From Cellvibrio sp. (lineage in GTDB: Bacteria > Pseudomonadota > Gammaproteobacteria > Pseudomonadales > Cellvibrionaceae): 64,000 nt of DNA. The stretch's first letter is position 1. Each line of letters opens with the position of its first letter. The notes below the pieces were generated by a model. The model saw only the letters and a list, made by a program, of their open reading frames with translations, made no database searches and had not been told where the DNA came from. The stretch is taken from contig NZ_JBCECX010000007.1 of NCBI RefSeq assembly GCF_039207905.1, positions 62,467-126,466 of the forward strand, in the 5' to 3' direction. Made by a program: the position numbers and the translations under genes. This document shows, in pieces, positions 10,114-39,853 of this stretch.

Positions 10114-11607
10114 ATGCATAGCAAACCGCAACTCGGTTTCTGGCAGATATGGAACCTCTGCTTTGGCTTTTTCGGCATCCAATTCGGATTTGCCCTACAG
10201 AACGCCAATGTGAGCCGCATCTTTCAGATTCTCGGCGCGCCCATTGAAGAGATCCCCATCCTCTGGGTTGCTGCTCCCATCACCGGCCTGCTGATCCAGC
10301 CGGTTATCGGCTATATGAGCGATAAAACCTGGCATCGCAACGGCCGCCGCCGCCCCTATATTTTGTGCGGTGCGATTGCCGCAACCCTCGCACTGCTGGT
10401 GATGCCCAATTCCCCTGAACTCTGGATCGCCGCGGGCATGCTCTGGGTACTCGATGCCTCGCTCAATATCGCCCTCGCACCATCCATTGCGATGGTGAGC
10501 GATATGCTGCCAGACAAGCAGCGTTCGGCCGGATTTTCCATGCAGAGTTTTTTTATCGGTGTGAGCGCGGTGGTCGCATCGGCATTGCCGTGGATTTTGA
10601 ATAACTGGCTGGACATCGCCAACACCGCCCCGCAGGGCCATGTACCACCATCGGTGACTTATGCATTCTATATAGGCGCAGCAATTTTATTGCTCAGCCT
10701 GTTATGGTCAGCCTACAGCACACCCGAATACAGCCCGGAGCAGATGGCCACCTTCCAGCGCTGGCGCGATGAGCAAAAACTGGATGTGATCGAGCAGCAA
10801 TACACCGGCTTCTCGCGTTGGGGAACGATTTTTTTAGCCGCCGGGATTATCGCCACCGCATTAATCCCGATTGCCTCACTCGACCACAAACTCTATGTGC
10901 TCAGTCTTGGTGTTGTGTTGTTCGGGTTGCTACAACTCGCCGCTGGCACATTGCAAAACGCCGGTCGCACCGACAACGCGCTCTACCAGATTACCCGCGA
11001 TATGGTGCTGATGCCGCGCACCATGCGCCAGCTGGCAATCGTGCAATGCCTGTCCTGGTTTGCGTTATTTTCCATGTGGATTTACACCACTGCAGCGGTA
11101 ACCTCGCATCACTATCACAGCACCGATCCGACCTCCCTCGCCTACAATCAGGGCGCAGATTGGGTCGGTATTTTATTCGCCGCCTACAATGGCTTTGCTG
11201 CACTCGCCGCCGTTGCTATTCCACTACTGGTGCGCAAAACCAATCGCAAGATTACCCATATGATCAACCTGTGTTTCGGCGCGCTCGGCCTGATCTCATT
11301 TTTATTTATCGAAGATCCTCATTGGTTACTGCTGGCAATGGTTGGCGTCGGCTTCGCCTGGGCCTCTATTCTCGCCCTGCCCTTGGCGATGCTTACCAGC
11401 GCATTGCCACCCGCCAAGATGGGTGTGTATGCAGGAATTTATAATTTTTTTATTGTCATACCCCAGATACTCGCCTCCAGTATCCTTGCGCTGGTGGTGA
11501 GCAAATTCTTCGGTGGCCAACCGATTTACGCTATCGTCTGCGCCGGGGGCTTTATGATTCTTGCCGCTATCGCCACCGCATTTGTCGATGACACCAGCAA
11601 TAGCTAA
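10114..11607 (+). CDS. MFS permease of the GPH/SLC45 (sucrose/alpha-glucoside:H+ symporter-like) type
   Basis: Sequence GFWQIWNLCFGFFGIQFGFALQNANVSRIFQ...PITGLLIQPVIGYMSDKTW..GRRRPY, with about 12 predicted TM segments. The start was moved to the ATG at 10114 (MHSKPQLGFW). The ORF-track start at 9946 adds 56 non-membrane residues and is less likely. Confidence 0.8.
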   Translation: MHSKPQLGFWQIWNLCFGFFGIQFGFALQNANVSRIFQILGAPIEEIPILWVAAPITGLLIQPVIGYMSDKTWHRNGRRRPYILCGAIAATLALLVMPNSPELWIAAGMLWVLDASLNIALAPSIAMVSDMLPDKQRSAGFSMQSFFIGVSAVVASALPWILNNWLDIANTAPQGHVPPSVTYAFYIGAAILLLSLLWSAYSTPEYSPEQMATFQRWRDEQKLDVIEQQYTGFSRWGTIFLAAGIIATALIPIASLDHKLYVLSLGVVLFGLLQLAAGTLQNAGRTDNALYQITRDMVLMPRTMRQLAIVQCLSWFALFSMWIYTTAAVTSHHYHSTDPTSLAYNQGADWVGILFAAYNGFAALAAVAIPLLVRKTNRKITHMINLCFGALGLISFLFIEDPHWLLLAMVGVGFAWASILALPLAMLTSALPPAKMGVYAGIYNFFIVIPQILASSILALVVSKFFGGQPIYAIVCAGGFMILAAIATAFVDDTSNS

Positions 11608-11636
11608 ATTTTCTCGCCAGCACACAAGACACACCT

Positions 11637-12881
11637 ATGCCAGCCAGTATTGAAGCATTGATCAACAGTATTTATCGCAGCGAGTCGCGCCGTGTATTGG
11701 CGACCTTGATTCGCCTGCTAAAAGATTTTGATCTCGCCGAAGAAGCATTACAGGACGCATTCGCAGCCGCCATGCAGCAATGGCCACACGAAGGTGTACC
11801 GCAAAACCCGCGCGCCTGGCTGGTATCGACTGGTCGCTTCAAAGCGATTGACCAAATCCGCAAACGCGCGCGCTTTAATACCTCATGGGAAGACGTTGCC
11901 GAGCAATTGGAAGATGAGCTACACAGTGAGGACGCGGATTATTCTGAACTCCACATTGAAGATGACCAGCTGCGCCTGATATTCACCTGCTGCCACCCGA
12001 GCCTTGCGCCTGAAGCGCAAATGGCACTGACCCTGCGCGAAATTTGCGGGCTGACGACTGAGGCCATCGCGCGCGCCTTCCTCACTACGCCCAGCACACT
12101 CGCGCAACGTATAGTGCGCGCTAAAAATAAAATCCGCGATGCAAAAATTCCCTACGAAATTCCCGGCCGCAGCGAGTTACCCGAGCGGCTCGACGCAGTG
12201 CTGCATGTAATTTATTTAGTATTTAACGAAGGATATTCCGCTTCTTCCGGCAGCGAATTAACTCGGCAGGAATTGGCACAAGAGGCAATCCGGTTGGGGC
12301 GATTGCTCGCACAGCTACTACCGGAAGCAGAGGTGCTTGGACTGCTTGCGCTAATGCTGATCCAGGATTCACGCCACCATGCACGCATCGATAGCAACGG
12401 CGATTTGATTCGCTTGGAAGATCAGGATCGTCGTTTATGGAATCATGAACAAATTGCCGAAGGTTCAGCGCTCATCCAGCGCGCACTCAGCAGCAGTGAG
12501 GTTGATGTCTATTGCCTGCAAGCCGCCATAGCGGCGCTCCATGCCGAATCACCCAGTTTTGCCGACACCGATTGGAGTGAGATTTGTGGCTTCTACGATT
12601 TATTATTAGTCCGCAATCCATCGCCGGTGATTGAACTCAATCGCGCTGTAGCCATCGCCATGCGCGATGGTGCAGCAGCAGGCCTGACACTGGTCGATAG
12701 CTTGGTCGCACGCCAACAACTAACTGATTACTACCTGCTCCACGCCGCCCGCGCCGATTTGTTAGCCCAACTTGGGGAACTTGACGCCGCCAGTGCTGCC
12801 TATGCTATGGCGCTGGAATTAACCGATCAAGAACCTGAACGTCGGTTTCTGCGTAAAAAGCTGATGGACGTAAAACCGTAA
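11637..12881 (+). CDS. ECF sigma factor with a ~230-aa C-terminal TPR-like extension (COG4941 / ECF42-like)
   Basis: Sigma region 2 (RVLATLIRLLKDFDLAEEALQDAFAAA..PRAWLVSTGRFKAIDQIRK), region 4 HTH (ALTLREICGLTTEAIARAFLTTPSTLAQRIVRAKNKI) and a long helical C-terminal extension. No adjacent anti-sigma gene. Confidence 0.8.
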   Translation: MPASIEALINSIYRSESRRVLATLIRLLKDFDLAEEALQDAFAAAMQQWPHEGVPQNPRAWLVSTGRFKAIDQIRKRARFNTSWEDVAEQLEDELHSEDADYSELHIEDDQLRLIFTCCHPSLAPEAQMALTLREICGLTTEAIARAFLTTPSTLAQRIVRAKNKIRDAKIPYEIPGRSELPERLDAVLHVIYLVFNEGYSASSGSELTRQELAQEAIRLGRLLAQLLPEAEVLGLLALMLIQDSRHHARIDSNGDLIRLEDQDRRLWNHEQIAEGSALIQRALSSSEVDVYCLQAAIAALHAESPSFADTDWSEICGFYDLLLVRNPSPVIELNRAVAIAMRDGAAAGLTLVDSLVARQQLTDYYLLHAARADLLAQLGELDAASAAYAMALELTDQEPERRFLRKKLMDVKP

Positions 12882-22982: not shown

Positions 22983-23846
22983 CTACCAATTCATTTCGCC
23001 AGTAGCAACCTTGGCACTAATTACCATACCGTCATCGACGGGCAATTGTGGATAAGCTTTTTTTAATGCATCAACTAATTGAGTCGATGTGGGCTTATTC
23101 ACTAGCAATTTTTCATAAGCTTGCAAATATTCGCGACTGAATAACACGGCAGCATCCCCCTTGGGAACTGTGCCAATGTAGTGACCGGGAATGACAGTCG
23201 CAGGATTAAGCGCAGACAATGTTGTTAGCGCCCTGATCCACTCAGCACGCGCCGCTTTGGATTGTGTATCAGCAGTCCACAAATGAATACCACTACTGAC
23301 CAGCACACCACCCACAACCGCTTTAATTGATGGCACCCACAAATAGGCGTTGTGGGTATTGATCTCGCGCACCTCAATACTGTGGTTTTCAAGCGTCAAT
23401 CTGGTGCGGTCAAATACCTTCGGCACAAACACTTTCTTTGGTGCTTGCTCACCAAGAATTGGCCCCCAGTATTTCAGTTTTGCATCTTTGGTGTGCTCGA
23501 TATGTTCGACCACATTGCGACTCGCAATAATATCGGCATCGGGGAAAGCGGCAACGATAGGCTCTAAACCAAAGTAGTAATCAGGATCGCCAGCACTGAT
23601 ATAAATTTGCGTGAGTTTTTTACCGCTGGCGCGAATAAGATCAACCAATGCCTTTCCATCACCCACACCAAATTGTGCATCAACCAAAATGGCTTCTTTC
23701 TCGCCGGTTATCAGCGTTGATGACACAGGGAAAATACCTTTTTCCTGTGGATTATACGTTGCGATATGCAAATCGGCCGCCTGTGCAATTGATGCTCCCA
23801 ACAACACACTGGCAGCGATAGCCACTGCGCTAAACGTGCGTTTCAT
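22983..23846 (-). CDS. Periplasmic MBL-fold protein with a degenerate HxHxDH motif
   Basis: Signal peptide ending AQAAD. The MBL-like core (ILVDAQ...QIYISAGDPDYYFG) has no His residues where THxHxDH is expected. Later His residues (GIHLW, IPGHY) are retained. Confidence 0.55.
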   Translation of the reverse strand: MKRTFSAVAIAASVLLGASIAQAADLHIATYNPQEKGIFPVSSTLITGEKEAILVDAQFGVGDGKALVDLIRASGKKLTQIYISAGDPDYYFGLEPIVAAFPDADIIASRNVVEHIEHTKDAKLKYWGPILGEQAPKKVFVPKVFDRTRLTLENHSIEVREINTHNAYLWVPSIKAVVGGVLVSSGIHLWTADTQSKAARAEWIRALTTLSALNPATVIPGHYIGTVPKGDAAVLFSREYLQAYEKLLVNKPTSTQLVDALKKAYPQLPVDDGMVISAKVATGEMNW

Positions 23847-23965
23847 ACTCTATACCCTGCGATTAAGTTGTCTTGTTACTGCTTTGATTGCCAGTGTAAT
23901 ATTTCAAAAACAAATCATATATCGCACTTGACGAACAACACTGTTTCAAAAACCGAGCAAATAAC

Positions 23966-24856
23966 ATGGACAAACTGACCGCCATGCGCGTGTTTAGCCA
24001 AATAGCCGTTACCGGCAGCTTTAGCGCAACTGCCGAGCAAATGGCACTATCGCGCGCGATGGTGAGCCGCTACGTGAGCGAACTGGAAGAATGGTTGAAT
24101 CAGCGACTTCTGCAGCGCACCACGCGTAACGTCACCCTCACCGCAGCAGGCGAACAATTTTTACAGCGCTGCGAGCAAATTTTGGCACTGACAGATGAAA
24201 CACTGGAAGCCGCAACAATGCCGGATAGCGAATTGCGTGGCCAGTTACGGCTAGCCTGCAGCGCGACCTTTGCTTATTCCCAATTGGCGAGCGCCATTGC
24301 TGATTTTCAATCGCTACATCCCGGATTGAATATTGATATGAATGTGAGTGATGCCAGCATCAATTTAATTGATGCGCGTATTGATCTCGCCATACGTATT
24401 AGCAACACACCGGACCCGATGCTAATTGCACGACGCCTCGCGAGCTGCGCATCCGTATTGGTTGCGTCACCTGCTTATTTAGAAAAATACGGCATACCGG
24501 AATCGCCTGATTCGCTGGTGAACCACCGCTGTATGTCGCACGCCACTACCGGAAAATATTTATGGCAATTTACCCGCGCAAACCAGGTTTCCAAGGTTGA
24601 AATTCACAGCCATTTTTCCGCTAATGATGCAGCTGTATTGCTGCACGCGGCTCTGGCGGGCGGTGGAATTACCTTACAGCCCAGCTATCTTGCCAATTGT
24701 TATATTGCTGCCGGAACACTGGTGCCATTGTTAACCGAATGGTCGGTACCAAAACTGGAAATCAATGCGCTCTATCCATCGCGCCATCATCTACCAATGC
24801 GCGTGCGCAAGTTCCTTGATTTTTTAGTGGTGCGTTTTGAATCAGAACCCTGGTAA
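23966..24856 (+). CDS. LysR-family transcriptional regulator
   Basis: N-terminal HTH (FSATAEQMALSRAMVSRYVSELEEWLNQRLLQRTTR) plus a substrate-binding domain. Divergent from the MBL-fold gene. Confidence 0.9.
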   Translation: MDKLTAMRVFSQIAVTGSFSATAEQMALSRAMVSRYVSELEEWLNQRLLQRTTRNVTLTAAGEQFLQRCEQILALTDETLEAATMPDSELRGQLRLACSATFAYSQLASAIADFQSLHPGLNIDMNVSDASINLIDARIDLAIRISNTPDPMLIARRLASCASVLVASPAYLEKYGIPESPDSLVNHRCMSHATTGKYLWQFTRANQVSKVEIHSHFSANDAAVLLHAALAGGGITLQPSYLANCYIAAGTLVPLLTEWSVPKLEINALYPSRHHLPMRVRKFLDFLVVRFESEPW

Positions 24857-24865
24857 TTTTTACTA

Positions 24866-25267
24866 TCAAGCATCCCACTCCATATACCCATGAATAGCGG
24901 CATATTCGTAAGTGGTTATTTCAAATGGATTACCATCGGGGTCACGAAAATAGATTGACCACGAAAGATCATGATCGATAGGATTTACCGATATTCCCTT
25001 GTCATTCAAATGTTCGATCCAGGCAAAGAAATTTTCTGCAGTAACACTAAACGCTATTACTGTATTTTGGATGTTCTCTGACTCAAACAGCGCCAGATGG
25101 ATATTCCCCTGAGCATTGCCGATAGTTAACGGCCCCTTATCTGTCGCCCACTTATCAAATTCGGCAACCCGCTCAAAACCCAATACATCTTTGTACCACT
25201 GTTCTGCCAGCTTGCGGTCTTTAACCGACACATGAACATGATCGATTAGCATTAAATTGGGAGCCAT
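24866..25267 (-). CDS. VOC/glyoxalase-fold protein
   Basis: IDHVHVSVKDRKLAEQWYKDVLGF...YFRDPDGNPFEI. Confidence 0.75.
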   Translation of the reverse strand: MAPNLMLIDHVHVSVKDRKLAEQWYKDVLGFERVAEFDKWATDKGPLTIGNAQGNIHLALFESENIQNTVIAFSVTAENFFAWIEHLNDKGISVNPIDHDLSWSIYFRDPDGNPFEITTYEYAAIHGYMEWDA

Positions 25268-25299
25268 ATTAGTTACCTACCTGTATCAATCTCATGACA

Positions 25300-25926
25300 T
25301 TAAATGTCGAATACACAACGTACTGCACACTCTATATCGCTATGCACTGCTGCGGGACTCAATGCACGCTCAAAGAGATAAAAATCATTGGGTGCATTTT
25401 CTTTCATCCAGACAAATGATTTTTTCGGCCCTTGATACCATAACTGCCGCAAGTCGAAATAATCTTCCAATATTGTGGTGAGCAACCAGACACGACGGTA
25501 ATTACCCTCGATGTCATCACGCTGAATACGCGCCAGCATTTTTGCAGCCCATTGTTCGCGCACTGCTATTTCCTGTTCAGTAAGAACAGCAGGGCCAGCA
25601 TCAAACAACTTATCCAAGTCAGCCAAAAAGTCGTCCGCATGATTAGACTTTTGCACAAGAATTTGGCTACTGCGTAACTTCAAATACTCTTTTGTTGGCG
25701 ATGCCAAAAGTGCCTCTGGGTAAACAAACACATCCCAATAAGCATCGTCAATAAATTCGTTATTGCGAATTTCATGTTCTACCGCTGCAAATGCGGCAAC
25801 ATCATAGTCGCTATCGGCTGTTGCTGAACCATCCGCACGCGAGCCATACAGCAAAATAGTATGTGCGCCGTATTGGGCTACCAGATAATCGATAATTTTT
25901 ACCAAAACGGGATCAGTTGAGGGCAT
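25300..25926 (-). CDS. Pol-beta-superfamily nucleotidyltransferase domain protein with a helical C-terminal domain
   Basis: G-S...D-x-D motif (LLYGSRADGSATADSDYDV). The start was chosen at the ATG at 25926; the GTG at 25971 is an alternative. Confidence 0.65.
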   Translation of the reverse strand: MPSTDPVLVKIIDYLVAQYGAHTILLYGSRADGSATADSDYDVAAFAAVEHEIRNNEFIDDAYWDVFVYPEALLASPTKEYLKLRSSQILVQKSNHADDFLADLDKLFDAGPAVLTEQEIAVREQWAAKMLARIQRDDIEGNYRRVWLLTTILEDYFDLRQLWYQGPKKSFVWMKENAPNDFYLFERALSPAAVHSDIECAVRCVFDI

Positions 25927-25984
25927 GTTTTTTGGCCTGATAAAAAACTGATCATACGATAGTAAATTCACTAGTGGTTTACAA

Positions 25985-26017
25985 TAAAAAACGGAGAGGT
26001 ATTCCTCTCCGTTTTTG
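25985..26017 (-). terminator. Rho-independent terminator downstream of the FtsZ/tubulin-like gene
   Basis: 9-bp stem (acggagagg / cctctccgt) with loop tatt. An A-run on the plus strand gives the U-tract on the minus strand. Confidence 0.8.
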
Positions 26018-26039
26018 GGTGGTGTATATCAGCAAACGA

Positions 26040-28235
26040 TTAGGTTTTAGGCTTATCGAGTGATAACGCGGGCGTGGCGTTGAGCGAGACAATACGCGTC
26101 TTGCTGATTTTGTGACGGTAGATCTCGCGCAGGTATTTGATCGCTTTTTTTACGCTGTCACGCGATAGACGAATATCATTGATTGAGCAGAACTTCTCTG
26201 AATCGTTAATCAGCTCGCGATATTTTTTCTCATACATGGGCTTGATCGCGTACCAGTTGGTATCGAGAATCTTGGCAGGGTTTTCATACTCATTGAGCAT
26301 TTTATCCACCAGCTTTTCATCGAATTCGTCGGAGCGGATAAACTCCAGCATAGCGGCATCGAGTTGCTCATCGAAACGGTACGGATCTTTGGCAAAACAA
26401 CGTTTGATGAAGGCTACGATCAGTGTTAAGAAATCGTCACTCAGGCATGGGCTTTTTACAATCAATGTCGTTAACGAAATATTCGCCGAAGCACCTATTA
26501 CCAATGCATAACGCTTGAGCGTGGTATTGGGGAACAGGGAGTTCAAATGGGATTTGAGTTTATTCAAATCCATGTATGACAATTTGTAATCTTTCGGCAG
26601 GGAGATGATAGAAACAATCGACGAACAGTTTTTAAAGAAATGTAGATTTTTCAACTCTTCGGCGTCGTAGCCCTTTTGCAAATAGCGCGCGAGGGATTCG
26701 CGATAGCGACCAGACTCAATCGGCAGCAGACTGATACCTTCAATTGCCTGGGTTACTTTGTTGAAGTGCGGCAAATCAATCGAGCGATAGAATAAATCAT
26801 CAATGTTCAATTCACTCTTTTTCGGGTCCATACCGCGCAACTTATCCACGCCTTGTGGTGGCGTTGCATTCGGAATCACCGACTCGGCATAAGCAACGGC
26901 AACCGGGCCAGCTAAACTCATAAACAAATCGTTGGCATCGAGGCGAATCGTTTCACCTATATCAATGCCTGCGCGCCGGAAATAGTTTTCGTCGTAATCG
27001 GTAGTGACCGCTTGTGCGGTGAGGATGTTAAAAATTTGCTGGGAAATATATTGGTTGGCATATTTCTCCATCGCATTCACATCGATGTGCGGGATGTTGC
27101 CGTCATCAGTTGCTTCGGCGTAGCGCATGATGTCGTTGGAAATCAGCATCATTGCGTTCCACGGGCGAATACGATGCATCACGCTGGCTTCGCTGCTGTC
27201 TTCGTTATCAAAGTTGTAGGAGAAGTCCCACTCTTCAGATAAATACTTACACAGCAGTCGCCCGGCGTTGATGTGCAGCGCCTCCGACATTTCTACACCG
27301 TGGTCAGAAATATTGGGCAGGATACAAATACCGCTGGTGAAAATTGGCTCGAACACAAATGAATGGCCACGGTTCTCTGCATTGGCAGCCTCCGAGCGCA
27401 CATCAAATGTTTTGCTCATGTAAGCATATTGCTGAGCCAAACCAAATTCACTCGCCATACCGGAACCGGTACCACCACCCGCACTGAAAATATAAAAATA
27501 CAGGCGCGATTGGTTGGCTTTAATTCCACAGGAATCGATCAAATAAGAATGCACATGTTTCCAATCAGGATTGGAAAAACGCTGGGTATCTTTGTTGAGA
27601 ATAATTTTAGCGAGGTACTGGCCGAGAATTGGCGCATTACCGGAACCACCCGCATGAACTTCGGACAAGTCCATGATTTTCATCTTGGTGTAATCTTTAA
27701 GGAAACCGGAGCGCTCACCTTTGTGCGAGAAACGGATGCGGCCTTCAATATCTTTATCCAGATCGCCGAGCATCACCAAGGGCTCAATTAAAAACACCGG
27801 CTTGAGGTGATGGCCACCTTTTAAATGCAAGCTGCGTTTGATCCAGCGCATCGGCTTGTCTTGTTCGCGCACTTCTTTCTCTTCGCTGTTGAATTCGTTG
27901 AGGTAAAAGTTGCGCGCGTTATAAACCAGTGATGCCACATCCAACGCAATGTTGGAACCGCAACGCCCCAAACCAATCAAGCAAACCGACGGGAACTGCG
28001 GCTGCTTTTGATTGTTGGGATCTTCGTCTTTAAGAATATGGGGGTAAACACTGCTGCGCAGGGTATCCAGGTTGTAAAGAATCCGATCCAGATCGCGCTC
28101 GGTAAAATACATGTAACTGGAATTTTGCGGCGGCGTGAGCAAGTTAATGACTTCTGCCGCAGGAGGAGCATCCAGCGTAATCAGATCATCCTGGTCCAGC
28201 ACATCGGTAGGGCGAGAAGTTTTCTTGGTAGCCAT
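26040..28235 (-). CDS. Divergent tubulin/FtsZ-superfamily GTPase (731 aa) with N- and C-terminal extensions
   Basis: T1-like VCLIGLGRCGSNIALDV; T3-like HAGGSGNAPILGQYLA; exact tubulin signature FSAGGGTGSGMASEFG (T4); MMLISNDIMRYA (FtsZ IPND-like); T7-like GETIRLDANDLFMSLAGPVAVAY. The C-terminal subdomain pattern is SIVSIISLPKDYKLSYMDLNKLKSHL....RYALVIGASANISLTTLIV. Confidence 0.8.
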   Translation of the reverse strand: MATKKTSRPTDVLDQDDLITLDAPPAAEVINLLTPPQNSSYMYFTERDLDRILYNLDTLRSSVYPHILKDEDPNNQKQPQFPSVCLIGLGRCGSNIALDVASLVYNARNFYLNEFNSEEKEVREQDKPMRWIKRSLHLKGGHHLKPVFLIEPLVMLGDLDKDIEGRIRFSHKGERSGFLKDYTKMKIMDLSEVHAGGSGNAPILGQYLAKIILNKDTQRFSNPDWKHVHSYLIDSCGIKANQSRLYFYIFSAGGGTGSGMASEFGLAQQYAYMSKTFDVRSEAANAENRGHSFVFEPIFTSGICILPNISDHGVEMSEALHINAGRLLCKYLSEEWDFSYNFDNEDSSEASVMHRIRPWNAMMLISNDIMRYAEATDDGNIPHIDVNAMEKYANQYISQQIFNILTAQAVTTDYDENYFRRAGIDIGETIRLDANDLFMSLAGPVAVAYAESVIPNATPPQGVDKLRGMDPKKSELNIDDLFYRSIDLPHFNKVTQAIEGISLLPIESGRYRESLARYLQKGYDAEELKNLHFFKNCSSIVSIISLPKDYKLSYMDLNKLKSHLNSLFPNTTLKRYALVIGASANISLTTLIVKSPCLSDDFLTLIVAFIKRCFAKDPYRFDEQLDAAMLEFIRSDEFDEKLVDKMLNEYENPAKILDTNWYAIKPMYEKKYRELINDSEKFCSINDIRLSRDSVKKAIKYLREIYRHKISKTRIVSLNATPALSLDKPKT

Positions 28236-28372
28236 GTAGATAAATCCTTATTGAGCGACACAGTGTTATTAGTAGGAATGCCTGTACTGCTTACAATCGC
28301 AATCCTATTAACGCTAGTCGCGACTCGGCATAAATACAAACCTGCGCGCCGCTATCGCTCAATAAGTCTTTA

Positions 28373-28395
28373 AAAAAGGCGGTTTTTAACCACCC
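28373..28395 (-). terminator. Weak candidate terminator between the YcbB-like gene and the FtsZ-like gene
   Basis: The minus strand reads ggtggtt-aaa-aaccgcc (7 bp including one G.U pair) followed by TTTTTT. Confidence 0.4.
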
Positions 28396-28401
28396 AAGGG
28401 G

Positions 28402-30270
28402 TTAACTACGCTTGTTAAGTGCTGCCAACACCTGTGCATCGCGCTTGTAGATGTCCGGTTTGAAGGCAACTTGCGTTTCGCTGATTGCATCTACCGTCCA
28501 GTAGGCAAGCAAAATAGGAACACGTTTCGCCAGAGTCACATTGCGTGTTTTGCCATTCGCCAAGGCTTGGTCGATGGCCTCTGAACTCCAGTTGGGTGTT
28601 TCGGATAACAACAACTCAACCAATTCCAATGCACGCTCGACACGGATACAACCCGAACTAAACGCGCGCTGACTTTTGTCGAATAATTTTTGATGCGGCG
28701 TATCGTGCAGGTAAACCGCATAAGGATTTGGGAAACGGATTACGGCTTTGCCAAGCGCAGCATCATCACCTGCATCCTGACGCAGTGTCACATTGCCCGG
28801 GCGATTCCAATCGACGGTAGCGGGGTCCAGTTCTTTGCCGCTGCTATCCAGCACGCGAATATTATGGTCGCGCAGATAGTTAATATCTTTACGCACCTTC
28901 GGTAATACATCTTTGCGCAGAATGGTCGGCGGCACTGTCCAGGTCGGATTAAGAGTGATGTAATTCACTTCGGATTTAAAAATCGGTGTAGTGCGATAAG
29001 CCATACCCACTTGCACGCGCGAACGCCAAATCGGTTGATGCGCTTTAAAGTAAGTGACTTTGAATCCGGCTACATCGACCAACAACATTTCCGCCGGAAT
29101 GTTATGCAACAACCAGCGCGCGCGATCCAGATTTACCCGCAGCTGATCAATGCGCGATTGCACCGATACATTTAATGCTGCGCGCGTCGCCGGGCCAATA
29201 GCACCATCGACTTCCAGATATTGATCGCGCTGAAATTTTTTAACTGCTTCTACCAGATACTCATCAAACACGTTATCCGGATTAATACCGACTTCAACAA
29301 TCGGCTCCGCCGCTGCGCTGGAAGAACTGCTGCTCTCGGGCGTCATCACATCGGCGACAAACATATCGGTCGCTGATGGTGCCGAACTTGCGGCACTACT
29401 GGCAGCCATAAATTTTGCATCAGGCAAACATTTTTGCGCGGGTAGTAATCCCTGTTGGCCTTCGGCAGCAGGTAAAACAGGCGCAACATATTCGCCAGTG
29501 ACGCTCAAGCGCTGACGCAAAATCGCTACCTGTGGATCGACCATGCACGGCTTTAGCGAGGGTCCAGCAGGCAATGCCGGCCAGCCACCCTGCGCCGCCA
29601 ATATCCGGTAACGTTTCAGGCCTTCGCGCATACTGTTATAGATGGGGTGTTGCGGGCGGGTCTTGGCAAAGATTTCAGCAATGGGAGTCAAATCGATTCC
29701 ACCTGCAACATAGACGCCTGCACTGGTGAGGGCGAGATCTTCCAACTCAAAGTTCCACTGGGGATCGAGACCGGCAGGATCGACCTTGCCATTAAATAGA
29801 TGGTAGAGCGCGCGCAGATAAGCATTAGTCGCACGAATATCCTGATCGGCGTGGCGGGCAATGGATTCGGGGGAATTGTCATCAGCCAGCGGCGGAGTCT
29901 GGCTCAGCAGGGAGATTTGGTAATCCTCAGGACTCAAACCATCTTCTATCAGCGAGCCGAGCGCACTGATCAATTCGTCCAAGCGACCGGGTTGATCCCA
30001 CACCGGACGAAATTGCCTTTGGGTATAGAAGGAGCTTACAGCCTGGCTCAGGTCGCGCGAATTATTGCGCGCCGACTCTTGGGCGAGCTGCATGGTCGCG
30101 ACCTTCGCTTCAATTTCCTTTGTTAGCATTTCTTGCGGCGAGAGCGGTGCGGGTTGTGCAGCATCTGCCGCCAAAACAGGGAGGCTCGCGCCACACACTA
30201 TCAACAACACAACACAGGTAAACAAACGATCTGCCTTTGCGGGCAACTTCAACAACCTAAACAACTGCAT
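28402..30270 (-). CDS. YcbB/LdtD-type L,D-transpeptidase with a peptidoglycan-binding domain
   Basis: Signal peptide; PG_binding_1-like VKKFQRDQYLEVDGAIGPATRAALN; YkuD catalytic motif YLHDTPHQKLFDKSQRAFSSGCIRV. Size is 622 aa. Confidence 0.85.
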   Translation of the reverse strand: MQLFRLLKLPAKADRLFTCVVLLIVCGASLPVLAADAAQPAPLSPQEMLTKEIEAKVATMQLAQESARNNSRDLSQAVSSFYTQRQFRPVWDQPGRLDELISALGSLIEDGLSPEDYQISLLSQTPPLADDNSPESIARHADQDIRATNAYLRALYHLFNGKVDPAGLDPQWNFELEDLALTSAGVYVAGGIDLTPIAEIFAKTRPQHPIYNSMREGLKRYRILAAQGGWPALPAGPSLKPCMVDPQVAILRQRLSVTGEYVAPVLPAAEGQQGLLPAQKCLPDAKFMAASSAASSAPSATDMFVADVMTPESSSSSSAAAEPIVEVGINPDNVFDEYLVEAVKKFQRDQYLEVDGAIGPATRAALNVSVQSRIDQLRVNLDRARWLLHNIPAEMLLVDVAGFKVTYFKAHQPIWRSRVQVGMAYRTTPIFKSEVNYITLNPTWTVPPTILRKDVLPKVRKDINYLRDHNIRVLDSSGKELDPATVDWNRPGNVTLRQDAGDDAALGKAVIRFPNPYAVYLHDTPHQKLFDKSQRAFSSGCIRVERALELVELLLSETPNWSSEAIDQALANGKTRNVTLAKRVPILLAYWTVDAISETQVAFKPDIYKRDAQVLAALNKRS

Positions 30271-30481
30271 AAACGCATGCTCCTACGCACTTAACTAAAA
30301 CGTGCTTATTATCAAAGGTAGCAAAGAACATTCAAAAATTTGCTGCATTTTTGATCATTAGTGTTTGCCGCATCGATTTTCAGATGCTAGCATTCGTTCG
30401 TTATCGCACTTTAGTGGTTAAAACATAACCAAAAACAGCAAGGCCGCTGCAACTTTATCACCCAGAACTCCGGGAATATCC

Positions 30482-31231
30482 ATGTTGTACAAAACCTTTA
30501 GGGCCTTGTCTTTTTCGGCCTGCATAAGTCTTTTATTCACTTTTCATGCCACTGCCGGACAAGCGGAAGCAAGCAATCCTTTCCTGCCAGCCTCCCCATT
30601 TATCAATGAAGAGTCGCCGTTAAACCTGCTGAGCAAGTTGAGCAAAGCTGCTCCGGCTGCAAACCCCAAAGTTATTGGCCTGGCGCTGTCTGCACTGGAT
30701 TGTGCGATGCATCAGGGAATCTCCCCGGCACGCAATTTAACCGTAATCGATTACTCACTCGCCTCGACCATTCCGCGCTTGTGGGTCTTTGATTTGGTTA
30801 CCGGCAAGCTGCTATTTAACGAATTAGTCGCCCACGGCAAGAATACCGGTGAAAATTTTGCACGCAATTTTTCCAATACTTACGGAAGCTTGCAAACCAG
30901 TCTCGGTCTTTTCCGCACCAAAGATACCTATAACGGCTCCAATGGTTATTCGCTGCGCATGGATGGACTGGAAAGCGGTTTTAACGACAAAGCCATGGAA
31001 CGCGCGATCGTATTCCACGGTGCCCCTTACGTCGATTCCAAAATGGCCAACAAAACCGGGCGCCTTGGTCGCAGCTGGGGTTGTCCTGCCGTCCGTTTGG
31101 GTATCGCCAAGAAAGTAATCGATACCATCAAAGGCGAGCAATTCCTGTTCTCCTACTATCCCGACAAAAAATGGCTCACCAGCTCCAAATTCCTGAACTG
31201 CCCAAGCAGCCAGCGCTGGGCGAAAAACTAG
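30482..31231 (+). CDS. Secreted YkuD_2-type L,D-transpeptidase catalytic-domain protein
   Basis: Signal peptide; LWVFDL..GKLLF...VAHGKNTG; catalytic motif GRSWGCPAV. Confidence 0.75.
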   Translation: MLYKTFRALSFSACISLLFTFHATAGQAEASNPFLPASPFINEESPLNLLSKLSKAAPAANPKVIGLALSALDCAMHQGISPARNLTVIDYSLASTIPRLWVFDLVTGKLLFNELVAHGKNTGENFARNFSNTYGSLQTSLGLFRTKDTYNGSNGYSLRMDGLESGFNDKAMERAIVFHGAPYVDSKMANKTGRLGRSWGCPAVRLGIAKKVIDTIKGEQFLFSYYPDKKWLTSSKFLNCPSSQRWAKN

Positions 31232-31616
31232 CTCGATAAATCGCTTGCGCAGCCAGCTGTGCAAGTGATCGTGGCTACACCTCAGGCAGTAGTATCCCGC
31301 GTTAAAACAGCGACCATCCGTAAAGCTTTGTTAAAAAAAACACCCGCCTGCCATCAATTTATCAAGCTGTGTAAATAGCATCGCAGCGCCTCGTAACAAA
31401 TAGTATAAATACGCTAATAGTTTAAATGACTTTTACAGTTTTAAACATTCGGCATTCCCCCTTTGTAACTGCTTTCAATTAGAGTAGCCGCGCCGTTATC
31501 CCTGATTTACTCACGGCAAAGAGGATGTTTTTAAAAAATCTGCCAAGCTTAGGATGTACACCAAAAGCTAGCCTGACAAATCCAACCCACTATAAAAAAA
31601 GCCTAGGTCAAACACT

Positions 31617-32511: not shown

Positions 32512-35500
32512 ATGTCTCTCCTGAAAAAAATGGTGCTGGGATCATTATTGATTTGCAGCACACAGGTTTACGCACAAAATCCCGCCGATTATTTCAAAGC
32601 AAACAGTGCTTGGGTTAACGCCAGCAAAGTGAGCGCTGTTGGCAATAAATTGCAAATAACTGCAGCTCAAGACGGCAACATTCTCGCACTCACCGCCAAA
32701 GGCAGCAGTGAGCATTTAAATGCGAATGAGCATATCGGCGACTCAGTACTGGAAACCGAATTTCTGGTTCCCGAGGGCAGCGATGCAAAACTTTATGTAC
32801 AAGGTCGTTACGCAATCGACCTCAAGAACGTCAACAACGAGTGGCAAAAGTTGTACGTCACCTTTCGTGCACCGCGCTACAACGAAGCCAGTGCGAAAGT
32901 AGATTCCGCATTGATTGTAGAAGTGCGCATCAACGGTGAAACCGTTGCGGTAAATGATATCCGCACCGGCATGAGCGAAAACGCCAACATCGGCTGGGAA
33001 AATCCCGCAGGCCAAACCAGCTTTCAGGTAAAAAAAGGCCAGCTCGCCTTGCGCAATTTCACTATAGCGCCAGCGGATTTCTCTTTGATCACTATGCCGA
33101 AAAATTCCGGTGAGACAACCAATCAAAAAGAGTTGGTAGATTTTGTTGCGCTCGGTAAAGAGACCTTTGAATCTGTTGGCTGTAACGCTTGTCACTCAAC
33201 CATTAAAAACGATTCAGGTGTAAGCACTGGCCCAAATCTTTTTGGTTTGTTTAAACGCGAACCGCGCGACCGCGAAATCGTAGAAGGTGGTGAAGGCCAT
33301 AGATTCACCATTAAAGCGGATCGCCAATACCTGCACCGCAGTATTCGTTCCGCCACCGATCAATTAGCCGTTGCTGAAAGCGGCGCGAAAAAAGGTGAAG
33401 CATTTTTACCTATCATGCCAGCGTTTTCCGCGCAGGTATTAAGTGATTTGCAAATCGACGCCATCGGCGATTACCTCGCTACACTCAACGATCTGCGCGA
33501 CCAAGGCCCAACCATTAAATTGCTCGCGCAAACCGGTGCAGAAGAATACGACCCGATTGCTGACCGTTTGCAATTATTGGTTGACGATGAAGTACGCCTT
33601 CAACGTGGTCCGATGGCCGGTGTTTCTGGCCGTGCAATTCACGTAGGTTCACCTTGGGGCGTTAACTATTCATTTGATCCACGTCTGCTTGCCATTACTA
33701 AAATTTGGCAGGGCGGCTTTTTGGACATGACTGGCGAATTTACCAATCGCGGCGGCAAAGGTTTGAAGATGGGTTACGAAAGCCGCGAAATTAATTTTGG
33801 CGGCCAGGAGTTTTTATTTGCGCCACTCAATGCGCAAGGCAAGATAATCGACTTCTCGTTTAAAGATGCAAAATTCGGTGATGTAGAAACCATTAAAGCA
33901 TCGCTTAACAGCAAAGAAGATCACCTGCCCCGCGTTGCGGCGATGGATGCGCAATTTTTAGGTTACACGCGCAACTCCAAGCAAAAAAATGAACTGCCGA
34001 CATTTAATTATCGTGTTGGCAAAAACACCCTGAAAGTCCAAACCTCAATTGCCGCCAATGGCGATGTAAAAATCATATTGAATGGCGATATAAAAACCGC
34101 ACAACAATTTTCACTCAACACACAACTTCTGCAAAACGCAGCAGTTAACAAAGGTGAAATCAGCAACGGCCAATGGACTTTACCAGCAGGCAGCAAAACC
34201 GCAACGCTCACGGCAAAAATGCAAGTTGCCGCGAATGTATGGCATGCGAAAAAATCAGAATTTGATTACCGCAAACAACCAATCAAAATTACTGAAGCCA
34301 AAGCCGATTTGCCTGCGGGTTACAGCATCGAAAGTTACTACCCTCCAAAAGATAATTTTGGTCGCGAGCAATTATTTGAAGCCTTGGGCCTGGCATTAAC
34401 GCAAGACAACACTACAGTGATTGCCACGCGCACCGCGGGAATCTGGCGCATTGTGAAAGGCCAATGGCATTTATTTGCCGAAGGTACTTTTGACAGCTTG
34501 GGCGTATTGGTTGAAGACAAAAAAGGCCTCACCGTTATCGCCGGACAAAAAGCCGAACTCACGCGCATTCGCGACACCAACGGTGACGGCATTGCCGATA
34601 GTTACGAAACCTTGTTCGATGCTCACTCTTATCACGGCAACTATCACTCCTATATGCACGGCCCAACACGTGGTAGCGACGGTGCTTATTACATCAGCAT
34701 CAACCTCGCCGATGGCGGTGATGGCTCTACCTACAAAGCCGGTGGCAAATACATGGGCTCACAAGGTGGATTGGCGGGATGGAATATTCGAGTTGAACCC
34801 AACGGCAAATTCGAGATGTGGGCAAATGGTTTACGCAGCCCTGCCGGCTTGGGTACTGCACCTGATGGTCGCCTCTGGTATTCCGATAACCAAGGTGAAT
34901 ATATGGGAACCTCGAAAATTTTCGACATCAAAAAAGATATGTTCTTTGGTCATCCATCAGCGCTGGTCGATTTACCTGGCATGACTGCTGACTCACCGGA
35001 AATTGCGTGGGATAAAGTACAGAACAAACGTACCAACCCAATTATTCTGCTGCCGCACAACCGTGTCGCCAACTCACCGGGCAATCCGGCGTGGGATACC
35101 ACCAAAGGAAAATTCGGTGCATTTACCGGTCAAATGTTGATGGGCGATCAAACCCAATCGAATTTGTTGCGCATCGCGTTCCAAACAGTTGATGGGGTTG
35201 AGCAAGGCAGTGTGATGCCGTTTATTGATGGTTTGGAATCTGGCGTTATGCGCCCGCTGTTTTTGAAAGACGGCAGTTTGCTGCTTGGCCAAACTGGTCG
35301 TGGCTGGCAGGCAAAAGGTGGGCATGTCGCCAGTTTGCAACGCATAGTGTGGGATGGAAAAACAATTCCAGCTGCCATTACCCAAATGCTTGCGACACCA
35401 ACTGGCTTTGCAATCGAATTCACTCAGCCAGTTGACAGTAAAGTCGCTGCAGATGCATTAAGATCGCTGGTAAGTTTGGAGTCCTGGGTTTATCGCGATG

Positions 35501-35742
35501 CACCGGATTATGGTTCGGACGAATTGGATGTGACGCAAGAGGCGATCAAGGCGGTGTCGATCAGTGCTGATCGTAAAACCGTGAATATCGATTTGCAGTC
35601 ACTGGTACAAAAACAGGTTCATCCACAACAAACTGCCCGTGTTTATCACGCACAGTTAAAAACCCAAACATTGTTTGAAAAAAATGCAGCGGAAAAAATG
35701 GATGCGTACTACACGCTTTATAAATTCCCCGCCGCCAAATAA
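32512..35742 (+). CDS. Large secreted protein: DUF1080-like N-terminus, a mono-haem cytochrome c, and a beta-propeller 'membrane-bound dehydrogenase' domain (PVC-type)
   Basis: Signal peptide; a single CxxCH (GCNACHS) with a downstream Met candidate (LPIMPAF); a propeller-like region (AGIWRI..TRIRDTNGDGIADSYETLFD..YHSYMHGP). Size is 1076 aa. Confidence 0.7.
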   Translation: MSLLKKMVLGSLLICSTQVYAQNPADYFKANSAWVNASKVSAVGNKLQITAAQDGNILALTAKGSSEHLNANEHIGDSVLETEFLVPEGSDAKLYVQGRYAIDLKNVNNEWQKLYVTFRAPRYNEASAKVDSALIVEVRINGETVAVNDIRTGMSENANIGWENPAGQTSFQVKKGQLALRNFTIAPADFSLITMPKNSGETTNQKELVDFVALGKETFESVGCNACHSTIKNDSGVSTGPNLFGLFKREPRDREIVEGGEGHRFTIKADRQYLHRSIRSATDQLAVAESGAKKGEAFLPIMPAFSAQVLSDLQIDAIGDYLATLNDLRDQGPTIKLLAQTGAEEYDPIADRLQLLVDDEVRLQRGPMAGVSGRAIHVGSPWGVNYSFDPRLLAITKIWQGGFLDMTGEFTNRGGKGLKMGYESREINFGGQEFLFAPLNAQGKIIDFSFKDAKFGDVETIKASLNSKEDHLPRVAAMDAQFLGYTRNSKQKNELPTFNYRVGKNTLKVQTSIAANGDVKIILNGDIKTAQQFSLNTQLLQNAAVNKGEISNGQWTLPAGSKTATLTAKMQVAANVWHAKKSEFDYRKQPIKITEAKADLPAGYSIESYYPPKDNFGREQLFEALGLALTQDNTTVIATRTAGIWRIVKGQWHLFAEGTFDSLGVLVEDKKGLTVIAGQKAELTRIRDTNGDGIADSYETLFDAHSYHGNYHSYMHGPTRGSDGAYYISINLADGGDGSTYKAGGKYMGSQGGLAGWNIRVEPNGKFEMWANGLRSPAGLGTAPDGRLWYSDNQGEYMGTSKIFDIKKDMFFGHPSALVDLPGMTADSPEIAWDKVQNKRTNPIILLPHNRVANSPGNPAWDTTKGKFGAFTGQMLMGDQTQSNLLRIAFQTVDGVEQGSVMPFIDGLESGVMRPLFLKDGSLLLGQTGRGWQAKGGHVASLQRIVWDGKTIPAAITQMLATPTGFAIEFTQPVDSKVAADALRSLVSLESWVYRDAPDYGSDELDVTQEAIKAVSISADRKTVNIDLQSLVQKQVHPQQTARVYHAQLKTQTLFEKNAAEKMDAYYTLYKFPAAK

Positions 35743-38134: not shown

Positions 38135-39853
38135 ATGTATAACAAAGTCGCATTAATCTTACTTACGTCCAGCTTATTCACTGCATGTGGTGGAGGCGGA
38201 GGTGGCTCAACAGGCACGCCAACTCCAACAACATCAAGCGCAGCCTTAAGCTCGACTCCCGTAGTAAGCTCCAGTTCCAGCTCAAATAGTAGTTCAAGTG
38301 CAGCGGCAGTGGTTATTCTCCAAGGGCAATTTAAAGATAACAACGTAACTGGCCTTCAGTTTATATCTGGCAACCAATCCGGTGTCACCAACGCTAGTGG
38401 TACATTTACTTACGAACAAGGTAAAACCGTTACTTTTTCAATTGGAGCACTAACGTTGGGTACGGCGCAAGGTAAGGAGTTGATAACTCCTATCGATTTA
38501 ATTACCGATGGTAGTTCGGATGATGTAGCGGTACAGAATCTTGTGCGCTTGCTGATAATGTTGGACGCCGATGGCTACACACCGAACGGCATTCAAATTT
38601 CTTCAGCGGTACAAACAGCCGCAAATAGTTGGGCGCAAGTTGATTTTAGCTCCGTTAATTTCTCTTCCGATGTAATAAATCTTATGGCTGCAGCAACTGC
38701 TGCGGATAGCGGCGCACACAGCCTTCCCGATGCAGCTGCAGCAAAAATGCATTTAGATTCAACACACAGGTGCAGTTATTCAGGGGCGTACAAAGGAATA
38801 TCAAATACCGCAGCTAATGAACACCAAGGTTTTATCGTTGATGCGCTAGAGGGAAATGTATCTGGTGTTTTGTATAGCGATGCGAATAATGGTTTTACTG
38901 AGTTTACCAATATCACCAAGATCCAACCCAAGCAGCAGATATCATTTTCGATTGGTAATAACAGCACTACTTACGCAGGCGAATTTACGTCGTTAAATAC
39001 CATAACTGGAACATGGCAAAAGAATAATGATAAGGGTACATTTACCGCTACACGATTAGCAAGAACAGCCAATGCTATTTATCGTTTCTCCGCCAGTTAC
39101 ACGGGAACAACATCCGGACTATTTACATTCGATATAGATCAGGCGAATAAAATCACTGGCTCACATTACGATGTAAAAACTAACACAGAAGAATCGATCA
39201 ACGGAACTTTGATCGGTACAAAGCTGACTGCAACGACTGCGAAGGGAATTCAAATCCAGGGCATGCTAAGTACCGATACCGGAACACTAAGCGGCACTTG
39301 GTCAGACACCAGCAAAGGTGCATCGGGAAGTTTTTCTGGCAGCGGCTGTCAATTAAACCCTGTTCCACTTTCAATCAACGGTTTTCGCTCATTCAAAACT
39401 GGCCGAGATACAGGCACAGTTCAACTGATTCCCGCATCAGGAACTGATCCACTTATTTTGTTGGATGGCATTCCCGTGGTGAGAGTTCGGATGAATGTAA
39501 ACCCGTGGGGTGAAATGTCATTTCCAATCAGTGGGTTTGATCAAACTGGCGAAGCGGCGCAAGTGAGTTTAGCTAGCTCCCGCTTTATCGACATTACCTA
39601 CCAATCGAATCAAAGCGTTAATCTGCAATTACGCCAATATGCTGTTCACGGTGGCACGCACAATCAAATAACCTTACCAGCAGCAGCTACATTTACCACA
39701 GTGCGGATTCCTTTCAGCGACTTTAAAGGCGGATTATCAACACTGGATTTAACCAAAGTGGCGAAATTTAACTTTGCACTGCTCAGTAACAATCCGAATG
39801 ACGGCTACGCAGAACTGATTGTTAAGAATTTTAAAATCGAAAACTTTAATTAA
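38135..39853 (+). CDS. Lipoprotein with a Gly/Ser-rich linker and a C-terminal CBM-like (CIA30/CBM11-like) beta-sandwich; function unknown
   Basis: Lipobox LFTAC followed by GGGGGGS and a poly-Ser linker. Repeated G(T/S)W...G.F modules are present. The C-terminus (NFALLSNNPNDGYAELIVKNFKIENF) resembles carbohydrate-binding sandwiches. Confidence 0.6.
   Translation: MYNKVALILLTSSLFTACGGGGGGSTGTPTPTTSSAALSSTPVVSSSSSSNSSSSAAAVVILQGQFKDNNVTGLQFISGNQSGVTNASGTFTYEQGKTVTFSIGALTLGTAQGKELITPIDLITDGSSDDVAVQNLVRLLIMLDADGYTPNGIQISSAVQTAANSWAQVDFSSVNFSSDVINLMAAATAADSGAHSLPDAAAAKMHLDSTHRCSYSGAYKGISNTAANEHQGFIVDALEGNVSGVLYSDANNGFTEFTNITKIQPKQQISFSIGNNSTTYAGEFTSLNTITGTWQKNNDKGTFTATRLARTANAIYRFSASYTGTTSGLFTFDIDQANKITGSHYDVKTNTEESINGTLIGTKLTATTAKGIQIQGMLSTDTGTLSGTWSDTSKGASGSFSGSGCQLNPVPLSINGFRSFKTGRDTGTVQLIPASGTDPLILLDGIPVVRVRMNVNPWGEMSFPISGFDQTGEAAQVSLASSRFIDITYQSNQSVNLQLRQYAVHGGTHNQITLPAAATFTTVRIPFSDFKGGLSTLDLTKVAKFNFALLSNNPNDGYAELIVKNFKIENFN

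Follow-up and report, generated by a model that had tools for sequence, protein, structure and literature searches.

A Cellvibrio gene of the FtsZl2 family encodes a divergent tubulin/FtsZ-fold protein that probably forms filaments

We analysed a stretch of 64,000 nucleotides from Cellvibrio sp. (assembly GCF_039207905.1, contig NZ_JBCECX010000007.1), referred to here as the window. On its minus strand, at 26040-28235, lies a gene of the FtsZl2 type, a divergent member of the tubulin/FtsZ superfamily, which encodes a protein of 731 residues. The open reading frame (ORF) begins with the ATG at 28235 and its stop codon occupies 26040-26042, while the plus-strand translation of the same interval has stops throughout. 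The G+C content of the gene (0.469) equals that of the window (0.468), and an identical protein (100%) is annotated as a hypothetical protein in a metagenome-assembled genome of Cellvibrio sp. A preliminary description of this DNA, which named no strand, had quoted a series of tubulin/FtsZ motifs, and all of them were found on the minus strand in the order in which they had been given: GLGRCGSNIA (residues 88-97), AGGSGNAPILG, GGGTGSG, LISND (364-368), IRLDANDLFMSLAG, and the C-terminal pattern IISLP...YALVIGASANISLTTLIV (543-593). The remaining ranges are collected in Table 1. The protein ends in ...IVSLNATPALSLDKPKT, which is unlike the FtsZ C-terminal peptide; no dcw genes occur in the 64-kb window and the protein has no match to FtsZ_C, so that the earlier statement that this is not the housekeeping FtsZ stands. 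Inspection revealed no obvious N-terminal signal peptide and no long hydrophobic stretch, and the protein is therefore presumably cytoplasmic.

Sequence methods barely detect the relationship to tubulin and FtsZ, and the fold was settled by structure prediction and Foldseek. An AlphaFold2 model was built from an alignment of 39 family members with identities down to 20%, and reached a predicted template modelling score (pTM) of 0.83 and a mean predicted local distance difference test score (pLDDT) of 79.9. Compared with the PDB, it gave 799 Foldseek matches at E<1e-3, and all 50 of the matches listed belonged to the tubulin superfamily. The top match was CetZ2 (4b45; E 1.3e-12; target-normalised TM-score, TMt, 0.67), and gamma-tubulin (3cb2), many beta-tubulins, and BtubA (2bto) were among the other leading matches (E 1e-12 to 1e-11); the TMt with Staphylococcus aureus FtsZ (7ojd) was 0.70. 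CetZ and tubulins rank above FtsZ on small E-value differences only. For CetZ, tubulins, and FtsZ alike, the Foldseek probability was 1.0 and the TMt was 0.55-0.70 over whole chains. Because whole two-domain chains align, the protein has a C-terminal domain as well as the GTPase domain, and the secondary structure of the model follows the canonical tubulin/FtsZ topology, with H7, a loop, H8, and S7 in the expected order (Table 1). In the viral structure library BFVD, phage FtsZ/tubulin-like proteins were the only matches. Thus, the AlphaFold2 model shows a complete two-domain tubulin/FtsZ fold, and the check by AlphaFold and Foldseek that had been proposed recovered the superfamily that the preliminary description had recognised.

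Profile comparisons agreed with this assignment to different degrees. The family profile was aligned by hhalign with beta-tubulin from T1 through T4 (E 3e-5), and a greedy alignment with the FtsZ profile paired T1, T3, T4, T6, H7, and T7 in order. Any errors in the FtsZ and tubulin reference sequences could only weaken these profile matches. Pfam Tubulin was matched weakly by 23 of the 39 family members (best E 2.4e-7), and Tubulin_2 weakly by 11. In a search of Pfam with the window protein itself, as had been suggested, neither FtsZ_C nor Tubulin_2 (PF13809, at E<=0.01) was matched and Tubulin stayed below the cut-off. No match to the 731-residue protein was obtained from NCBIfam, PADLOC, or PHROGs.

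The GTP pocket is intact, comprising T1 GxGRCG, T3 GGxGN, T4 GGGTGSG, the SN of T6, and the Asn of H7. Twelve positions (G90, C92, G93, G197, G199, G254, G255, G257, G259, N367, N394, and D436) were invariant throughout the 39-sequence alignment. The invariant T1 Cys (C92) is found likewise in the GQCGNQ of beta- and gamma-tubulin, and hhalign paired GRCG with the GQCG of beta-tubulin. LISND aligned with TIPND of FtsZ, and ANQYI with ANDVL. In the T7 loop, RLDANDL aligned with NVDFADV of FtsZ and D433 was kept in at least 90% of the members, so the conserved T7 loop named earlier is confirmed. The motifs are mixed: T1, T4, and the H7 Asn are tubulin-like, while T6 and T7 are FtsZ-like. Bacterial FtsZ shares with the window protein the two-domain fold, a T6 resembling SND (PND), a common H7 ANxx(I/L), and a T7 in which VDFADV corresponds to LDxxDL. 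In contrast, identity to FtsZ is only ~10-16%, the window protein is twice as long, it has no dcw neighbourhood, no FtsA/ZipA-binding peptide, and no NCBIfam or FtsZ_C match, and its T1 Cys and T4 Ser are those of tubulin. Tubulins, BtubA/B, and CetZ are the best structural matches and share T1 GxCGxN, the exact GGGTGSG, the Asn in H7, and two long loops, H1-S2 and, at the position of the M-loop, S7-H9. However, identity to them is ~10-13%, the window protein is encoded by a single gene with no A/B pair, it is not archaeal, and its C-terminal helices form a distinct bundle rather than H11-H12.

Several further parts of the protein are specific to the family. All orthologues start with an M.TKK-type peptide (MATKK..., MKTKK...), continue with a linker of 30-50 residues that varies in length, and then enter an invariant YMYFTERDLxxILxNLDxLR segment. 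The corresponding segment of the window protein (residues 41-63) is near-invariant across genera, and its helix H0 (49-63) was modelled with pLDDT 83-94. This arrangement of an N-terminal peptide on a linker mirrors the C-terminal linker and peptide of FtsZ. The long H1-S2 loop contains a short basic segment, PMRWIKRSL, whose hydrophobic moment of 0.82 is close to the maximum of the protein (95th percentile, 0.60). In 30 of the 39 family members a segment of this loop exceeded the same 95th percentile of the reference protein; these segments are mostly net basic and often aromatic, occur even in divergent members, and take forms such as SFARRIFGRAGG, SYLGRIFSRRG, and RSFWERLFGARPG. Amphipathic segments of this kind resemble the membrane-targeting sequence of MinD. 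The S7-H9 loop is variable and predicted to be disordered. The last part of the protein is a bundle of ~110 residues with helices at about 600-707, whose conservation (0.78-0.95) is far above that of the tail (0.21). Modelled alone, the bundle had a pLDDT of 90.2 and matched no structure in the PDB (best E 4.7), and its interpretation as tubulin H11-H12-like or as DNA-binding is unsupported for want of such a match. The ~85-residue N-terminal extension and the ~130-residue helical tail of the preliminary description are thus borne out by the model. Its ~100-residue insertion between T1 and T3 is much smaller: T1 and T3 are ~104 residues apart, while this distance is roughly 50 residues in FtsZ and 88 in tubulin, so the extra material amounts to ~15-50 residues and is mostly the long H1 and the disordered H1-S2 loop.

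Table 1. Features of the FtsZl2-type gene, its product, and its upstream neighbours (window positions in nucleotides; protein positions in residues; secondary structure from the AlphaFold2 model)
Feature	Window position	Strand	Residues	Remarks
Intrinsic terminator past the FtsZl2 stop, CGGAGAGG-AATA-CCTCTCCG then U6	25986..26011	-
Family-specific C-terminal helical bundle and variable tail	26043..26450	-	596-731	Tail 721-731
C-terminal (activation) domain, canonical beta-sheet S7-S10	26451..26909	-	443-595	From predicted secondary structure
T7 loop and H8, IRLDANDLFMSLAG	26907..26948	-	430-443	Putative catalytic residues D433, D436
S6/T6 LISND, H6, H7 (ANQYISQQIFNILTAQ)	27018..27146	-	364-406	S366, N367, N394 invariant
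T4 signature GGGTGSG	27459..27479	-	253-259	G254, G255, G257, G259 invariant
T3 loop AGGSGNAPILG	27621..27653	-	195-205	G197, G199 invariant; aligns with tubulin GAGNN, FtsZ GAGANP
Long flexible H1-S2 loop	27783..27899	-	113-151	pLDDT <50 over 117-147
Short basic amphipathic segment PMRWIKRSL	27828-27854	-	128-136	Within H1-S2 loop
T1 loop GLGRCGSN	27951..27974	-	88-95	G88, G90, C92, G93 invariant or near-invariant
Conserved segment YMYFTERDLDRILYNLDTLRSSV with helix H0	28047..28115	-	41-63	Ahead of GTPase core
N-terminal basic peptide MATKKTSR and variable, disordered acidic/Pro-rich linker	28116..28235	-	1-40	pLDDT <50; conservation 0.28-0.41
Promoter-like element TTGTATT-N15-CTAGCGT	28311..28339	-		Starts 104 nt upstream of FtsZl2 ATG; putative function
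Terminator-like hairpin and T-run	28377..28395	-		After upstream L,D-transpeptidase gene, separating it from FtsZl2 gene
YcbB-like L,D-transpeptidase (Scaffold, PG_binding_1, YkuD; 622 aa)	28402-30270	-		Immediately upstream of FtsZl2
YkuD_2 L,D-transpeptidase (249 aa)	30482-31231			Divergent from YcbB-like gene
S1; T1 and long H1; disordered H1-S2 loop			84-89; 90-117; 117-147	Model
S2; S3; S4; T4 and H4			153-158; 185-189; 245-251; 255-282	Model
S5; H5; S6; H7			299-306; 318-340; 361-366; 386-406	Model
T7 and H8; S7; loop at M-loop position			434-440; 443-452; 453-477	Model
S8-S10 with helices; bundle			to 595; 600-706	Model

We found that the window protein is a member of a family that has already been published and not a new class. 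Two families, FtsZl1 and FtsZl2, were defined computationally by Makarova and Koonin (2010; Biol Direct 5:33; PMC2875224). FtsZl1 is widespread, contains a coiled coil, and is encoded in operons with vWA, GTPase, and OmpA genes. FtsZl2, with PFL_1302 as type member, was described as proteobacterial, with T1, T4, T6, T7, and H7 all conserved, inserts between T1 and T4, no coiled coil, a C-terminal region of ~300 residues of mixed alpha/beta structure, no conserved gene neighbours, and a long branch of its own in the 2010 tree. Additional file 1 of that paper lists CJA_3030 of Cellvibrio japonicus Ueda107 (735 aa) as FtsZl2. The C. japonicus protein ACE83858.1 (our P0021; 735 aa, Ueda107) is 87% identical to the window protein over 98% of the length, and we infer from strain, length, and uniqueness that it is CJA_3030; identity to the Pseudomonas orthologues is 75-82%. 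All the features by which FtsZl2 was defined are shared. GGGTG(S/T)G as well as T1, T4, T6, T7, and H7 are present, family-invariant, and in the correct order; the H1-S2 loop and H2/H3 elaborations make up the T1-T4 inserts; strands S7-S10 and helices, with no long coiled coil, are found in the last 289 residues (443-731); and the host is a Cellvibrio, with no neighbour cluster of the gene common to the genera compared (see below). Nothing separates the window protein from the family. In contrast, FtsZl1/Tubulin_2 (PF13809) resembles it as a divergent prokaryotic branch with the GGGTG(S/T)G signature and T1-T4 inserts, but differs in its unrecognisable T6-H7-T7, its long coiled coil, and its place in vWA/GTPase/OmpA operons, none of which applies here.

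The preliminary description had called the protein an orphan and a candidate for undescribed biology. As an orthologue of a listed FtsZl2 member it is neither an orphan nor of an undescribed kind: 641 relatives were found in the databases, at least 591 species genomes encode a relative (search seeded with a 10-sequence alignment), and the family was published in the very paper that the description had cited. Its suggested link to divergent families held for FtsZl2 and failed for Tubulin_2, which the window protein does not match, while its remark that such proteins have no established function agrees with the literature, where we found no experimental study of FtsZl2 function. A 2011 review called the function unknown, and a 2023 phylogenetic study did not treat FtsZl2; the 'FtsZ-like' sequences that it mentioned, and put aside, were of the Tubulin_2 type only. 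New beyond 2010 are the constraint on the sequence, the H1-S2 segment, the N-terminal peptide and linker, the mixed motifs, the wider distribution, and the promoter-like element, and also that the first ~150 residues of the 'unassigned' C-terminal region constitute a canonical FtsZ/tubulin C-terminal domain in the model and the last ~110 a novel helical bundle.

The distribution of FtsZl2 among genera was patchy. Only 159 matches were found among 1.84 billion cluster representatives, corresponding to roughly 40 full-length clusters. Distant relatives occur in Methylobacterium and Geminicoccaceae (Alphaproteobacteria) and in a cyanobacterium of the Prochloraceae (proteins P0125, P0127, and P0273). 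Thus, FtsZl2 is not confined to the gamma- and betaproteobacteria of the 2010 list, nor to Proteobacteria. One metagenomic relative (P0122, at 3686-6373 of locus L082; 895 aa, 42-48% identical) carries an XRE-family helix-turn-helix (HTH) domain at its N-terminus; no other domain fusion was seen in the family, and this one possibly hints at a DNA-linked role. Another distant relative (P0136, at 6001-7992 of locus L081) was found in a block of ~12 kb (203-12135) between rplK and rplA, together with GerE, DUF885, amidohydrolase, DUF4062 (weak), and Peptidase_C1 genes. The block resembles an island within a ribosomal operon that is normally uninterrupted.

The FtsZl2 gene is under very strong purifying selection. 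Among 75 orthologues from eight genera, 65% of the positions were at least 95% identical, and variable positions were limited to the termini and to loops that AlphaFold predicts to be disordered. Nonsynonymous divergence (dN) from other Cellvibrio was 0.04-0.08 with saturated synonymous divergence (dS), compared with a dN of 0.09-0.32 for the neighbouring genes. In the same genome pairs, ETF-beta was the only syntenic neighbour on a par with the FtsZl2 protein; all the others, including ETF-alpha, ETF-QO, and the L,D-transpeptidases, were less conserved. The constraint covers the whole folded surface, including the C-terminal bundle, as one would expect of a polymer with many contacts. We consider it likely that the window protein, a presumably cytoplasmic FtsZl2 member encoded by a stand-alone chromosomal gene, forms GTP-dependent, self-activating filaments. 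Most likely, it would bind GTP and polymerise head to tail as FtsZ and tubulin do, the invariant T7 aspartates D433/D436 of one subunit completing the GTPase site of the next and thereby giving dynamic filaments. More speculatively, the family-specific parts, namely the N-terminal basic peptide on its flexible linker, the conserved N-terminal helix, the amphipathic segment, and the C-terminal bundle, might position the filament and recruit partners. The amphipathic segment in the H1-S2 loop would be a candidate membrane anchor, or else a lateral contact like the H1-S2 loop of tubulin, and the N-terminal peptide and the C-terminal bundle might serve the recruitment of partners. Transcription would start from the gene's own conserved promoter-like element, and the protein would take no part in division, plasmid segregation, or a phage cycle.

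Several observations weigh against this reading. The window protein matched Pfam PF00091 in the T4 region alone, with E 0.0032 and 18.2 bits against a cut-off of 33, the family being simply too divergent for the Pfam model. Neither the single protein nor the 39-sequence profile found a significant tubulin or FtsZ match in sequence searches of the solved structures in the PDB, and the profile alignment that paired T7 with FtsZ had a probability of only 12%. The idea of a membrane anchor derives only from the amphipathicity of a segment of 9-11 residues in a low-confidence loop. Moreover, we found no experiment in the literature on GTP binding, hydrolysis, or filaments for any FtsZl2 protein, and the 2011 review stated that both FtsZl families may not form tubulin-like filaments. 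The tubulin fold might then work as a switch or an enzyme in monomeric or dimeric form, kept from assembling into filaments by the extra domains, and the large N- and C-terminal additions and the long loops, as well as the lack of any reported polymer, are compatible with that. However, the H7-T7-H8 segment is conserved at essentially 100%, with D436 invariant and D433 nearly so, and this conservation of T7 would have no obvious purpose unless the active site were formed between subunits. The near-total conservation of the surface also resembles that of polymer-forming proteins, and Makarova and Koonin (2010) argued that FtsZl2 retains all the elements needed for filaments. A GTPase that does not polymerise is the strongest of the alternatives, and still an improbable one.

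The surroundings of the gene were compared by clustering the neighbours of 76 orthologous loci from Cellvibrio, Rheinheimera, Arsukibacterium, Alkalimonas, Alishewanella, Paraglaciecola, Pseudomonas, and Aquipseudomonas, and no neighbouring gene was common to different genera. The neighbours were a YcbB-like L,D-transpeptidase, YkuD_2, and a 3-keto-disaccharide hydrolase in Cellvibrio (15 loci); ETF alpha/beta, ETF-QO, an RluF-like synthase, and a DASS transporter in the Rheinheimera group; and MFS, HD-GYP, and hydroxypyruvate isomerase genes in Pseudomonas. Two distant FtsZl2 homologues were likewise solitary. The survey of neighbourhood conservation that had been proposed thus yielded no shared partner. 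The terminator past the FtsZl2 stop has a folding energy of -19.4 kcal/mol (z -6.7), and none of 200 shuffled sequences folded equally well. Considering the terminators on both sides and the absence of a neighbour common to genera, the FtsZl2 gene is a stand-alone, monocistronic transcription unit.

A promoter-like motif, TTGTA[TA]T-N13-15-CTAnnnT, was present in 40 of 70 orthologue upstream regions, compared with a mean of 0.05 in shuffled sequences. Its distance from the start codon is 70-155 nt, and it is kept in Cellvibrio, Rheinheimera, Arsukibacterium, Alkalimonas, and Alishewanella despite different upstream genes; the Pseudomonas loci have instead TTTTTCATGCTACAAAC or CTCGAACA...GCTGTATATAGTGC. 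The C at -13 beside 'TA' resembles a sigma-S-type -10 element, and one might speculate about control by stress or stationary phase. Inspection by eye gave no convincing match to a LexA box or a sigma-54 promoter upstream of the gene, and an Rfam scan of 24000-31500 found no leader RNA.

In Cellvibrio the two L,D-transpeptidase genes suggest another reading, in which the protein is a scaffold for cell-wall remodelling that guides peptidoglycan cross-linking by these enzymes, as FtsZ and MreB guide synthases. The YcbB-like gene lies immediately upstream on the same strand with the second one beside it, and the pair adjoins the FtsZl2 gene in 15 of 15 syntenic Cellvibrio loci and in C. japonicus. 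Nevertheless, a terminator and a gap of 167 nt lie between the YcbB-like and FtsZl2 genes, and no such association exists in Rheinheimera, Alkalimonas, Alishewanella, Paraglaciecola, or Pseudomonas, where ETF/ETF-QO, RluF-like, MFS, HD-GYP, and similar genes are the neighbours. The transpeptidases also evolve much faster: within Cellvibrio they are 69-77% identical, compared with 92% for the FtsZl2 protein. The absence of a neighbour common to the lineages reproduces the conclusion of 2010 and undercuts the cell-wall suggestion of the preliminary description; since the adjacent transpeptidases are a matter of synteny in Cellvibrio only, the hint is weak and we regard such a scaffold as quite unlikely.

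Downstream, between the FtsZl2 gene and GyrI-like/YCII genes, four genes at 22983-25971 encode a nucleotidyltransferase, a glyoxalase, a LysR regulator, and a metallo-beta-lactamase-fold protein. The nucleotidyltransferase gave weak matches to the MntA antitoxin and to PADLOC PDC-S09. The four-gene block looks like a lineage-specific insertion, since in C. japonicus no gene lies between the FtsZl2 gene and the GyrI-like/YCII genes.

A tblastn search of 72,556 plasmids and 50,697 phage genomes found no FtsZl2 homologue, and with no PHROG match either, a plasmid or phage origin of the gene was rejected. The same search bears on a possible role as a chromosomal analogue of TubZ or PhuZ, a filament for moving or organising DNA. 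The structural relatives include TubZ and PhuZ, which, like FtsZl2, are divergent members of the tubulin-fold GTPases; TubZ and PhuZ form filaments independently of FtsZ partners, and their terminal extensions aid assembly. The HTH domain of the distant 895-residue member also points in this direction. In contrast, TubZ and PhuZ are encoded by plasmids or phages together with adaptor genes, whereas the FtsZl2 family is chromosomal only, no TubR-like adaptor gene or repeat 'centromere' lies beside the FtsZl2 gene, and the HTH fusion occurs in 1 of ~40 clusters, which leaves a DNA-segregating or nucleoid filament with very little probability. Least probable of all is a component of NTP-dependent conflict or defence systems, as was proposed for FtsZl1-type tubulin-domain proteins: tubulin homologues do occur in GTPase/vWA conflict systems (the source paper concerns the FtsZl1 type only), the distribution among genera is patchy, and a candidate defence-type nucleotidyltransferase lies downstream in the window, but the FtsZl2 protein has no PADLOC match, no vWA, GTPase, or effector neighbours exist in any lineage examined, the nucleotidyltransferase is not at the corresponding position elsewhere (a relative from the same cluster occurs in some loci), the G+C content of the gene equals that of the window, and conflict genes would be expected to show the reverse of this extreme conservation and low dN.

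Elsewhere the window has the content of an ordinary Cellvibrio chromosome: xylanase, GH43, GH115, and alpha-1,3-glucanase genes, TonB receptors, and an EptA two-component locus. Two tandem genes of the tryptophan-halogenase family (506 and 504 aa) lie at 2914-9296 beside a TonB-dependent receptor of 1046 residues, an arrangement that in this group typically marks polysaccharide-utilisation loci and not the synthesis of halogenated metabolites. An ORF of 1076 residues at 32512-35742 combines a 3-keto-disaccharide-hydrolase-like domain with weak cytochrome c signals and DUF7133, and adjoins a separate 3-keto-disaccharide hydrolase gene (261 aa). Another ORF (38135-39853; 572 aa) had no Pfam match at E<=1e-5. 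A xylan-degradation cluster at 51286-57784, downstream of a NUDIX-NrtR/AraR-type regulator and a sugar transporter, comprises GH10 with CBM15, GH43 with a beta-xylosidase C-terminal domain, and GH115. As called, the GH10 and GH43 ORFs overlap by ~130 nt; thus, one start codon was probably mis-assigned.

Going beyond the filament that we prefer, FtsZl2 could be viewed as a third, functionally independent tubulin-class cytoskeleton of Gram-negative bacteria, which would bind the inner membrane directly through its internal, MinD-like amphipathic helix, recruit partners through the N-terminal peptide on its flexible linker, and be expressed from a dedicated promoter. We regard this extended proposal as tentative and rather doubtful. 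If it were true, such a cytoskeleton would be marked by the T1 Cys, GGGTGSG, and long loops at the H1-S2 and M-loop positions, and possibly by stress or stationary-phase control. FtsZl2 is among the few tubulin/FtsZ branches known from computation alone, yet its members are among the most constrained proteins of the genomes that carry them. The family occurs in tractable organisms, including Pseudomonas fluorescens/protegens and Cellvibrio japonicus. It could inform the origin of tubulin-specific features such as the lateral-contact loops and the T1 Cys, and the bacterial cytoskeleton as now known would be enlarged if a role were found for a second tubulin homologue, outside division, in ordinary gammaproteobacteria.

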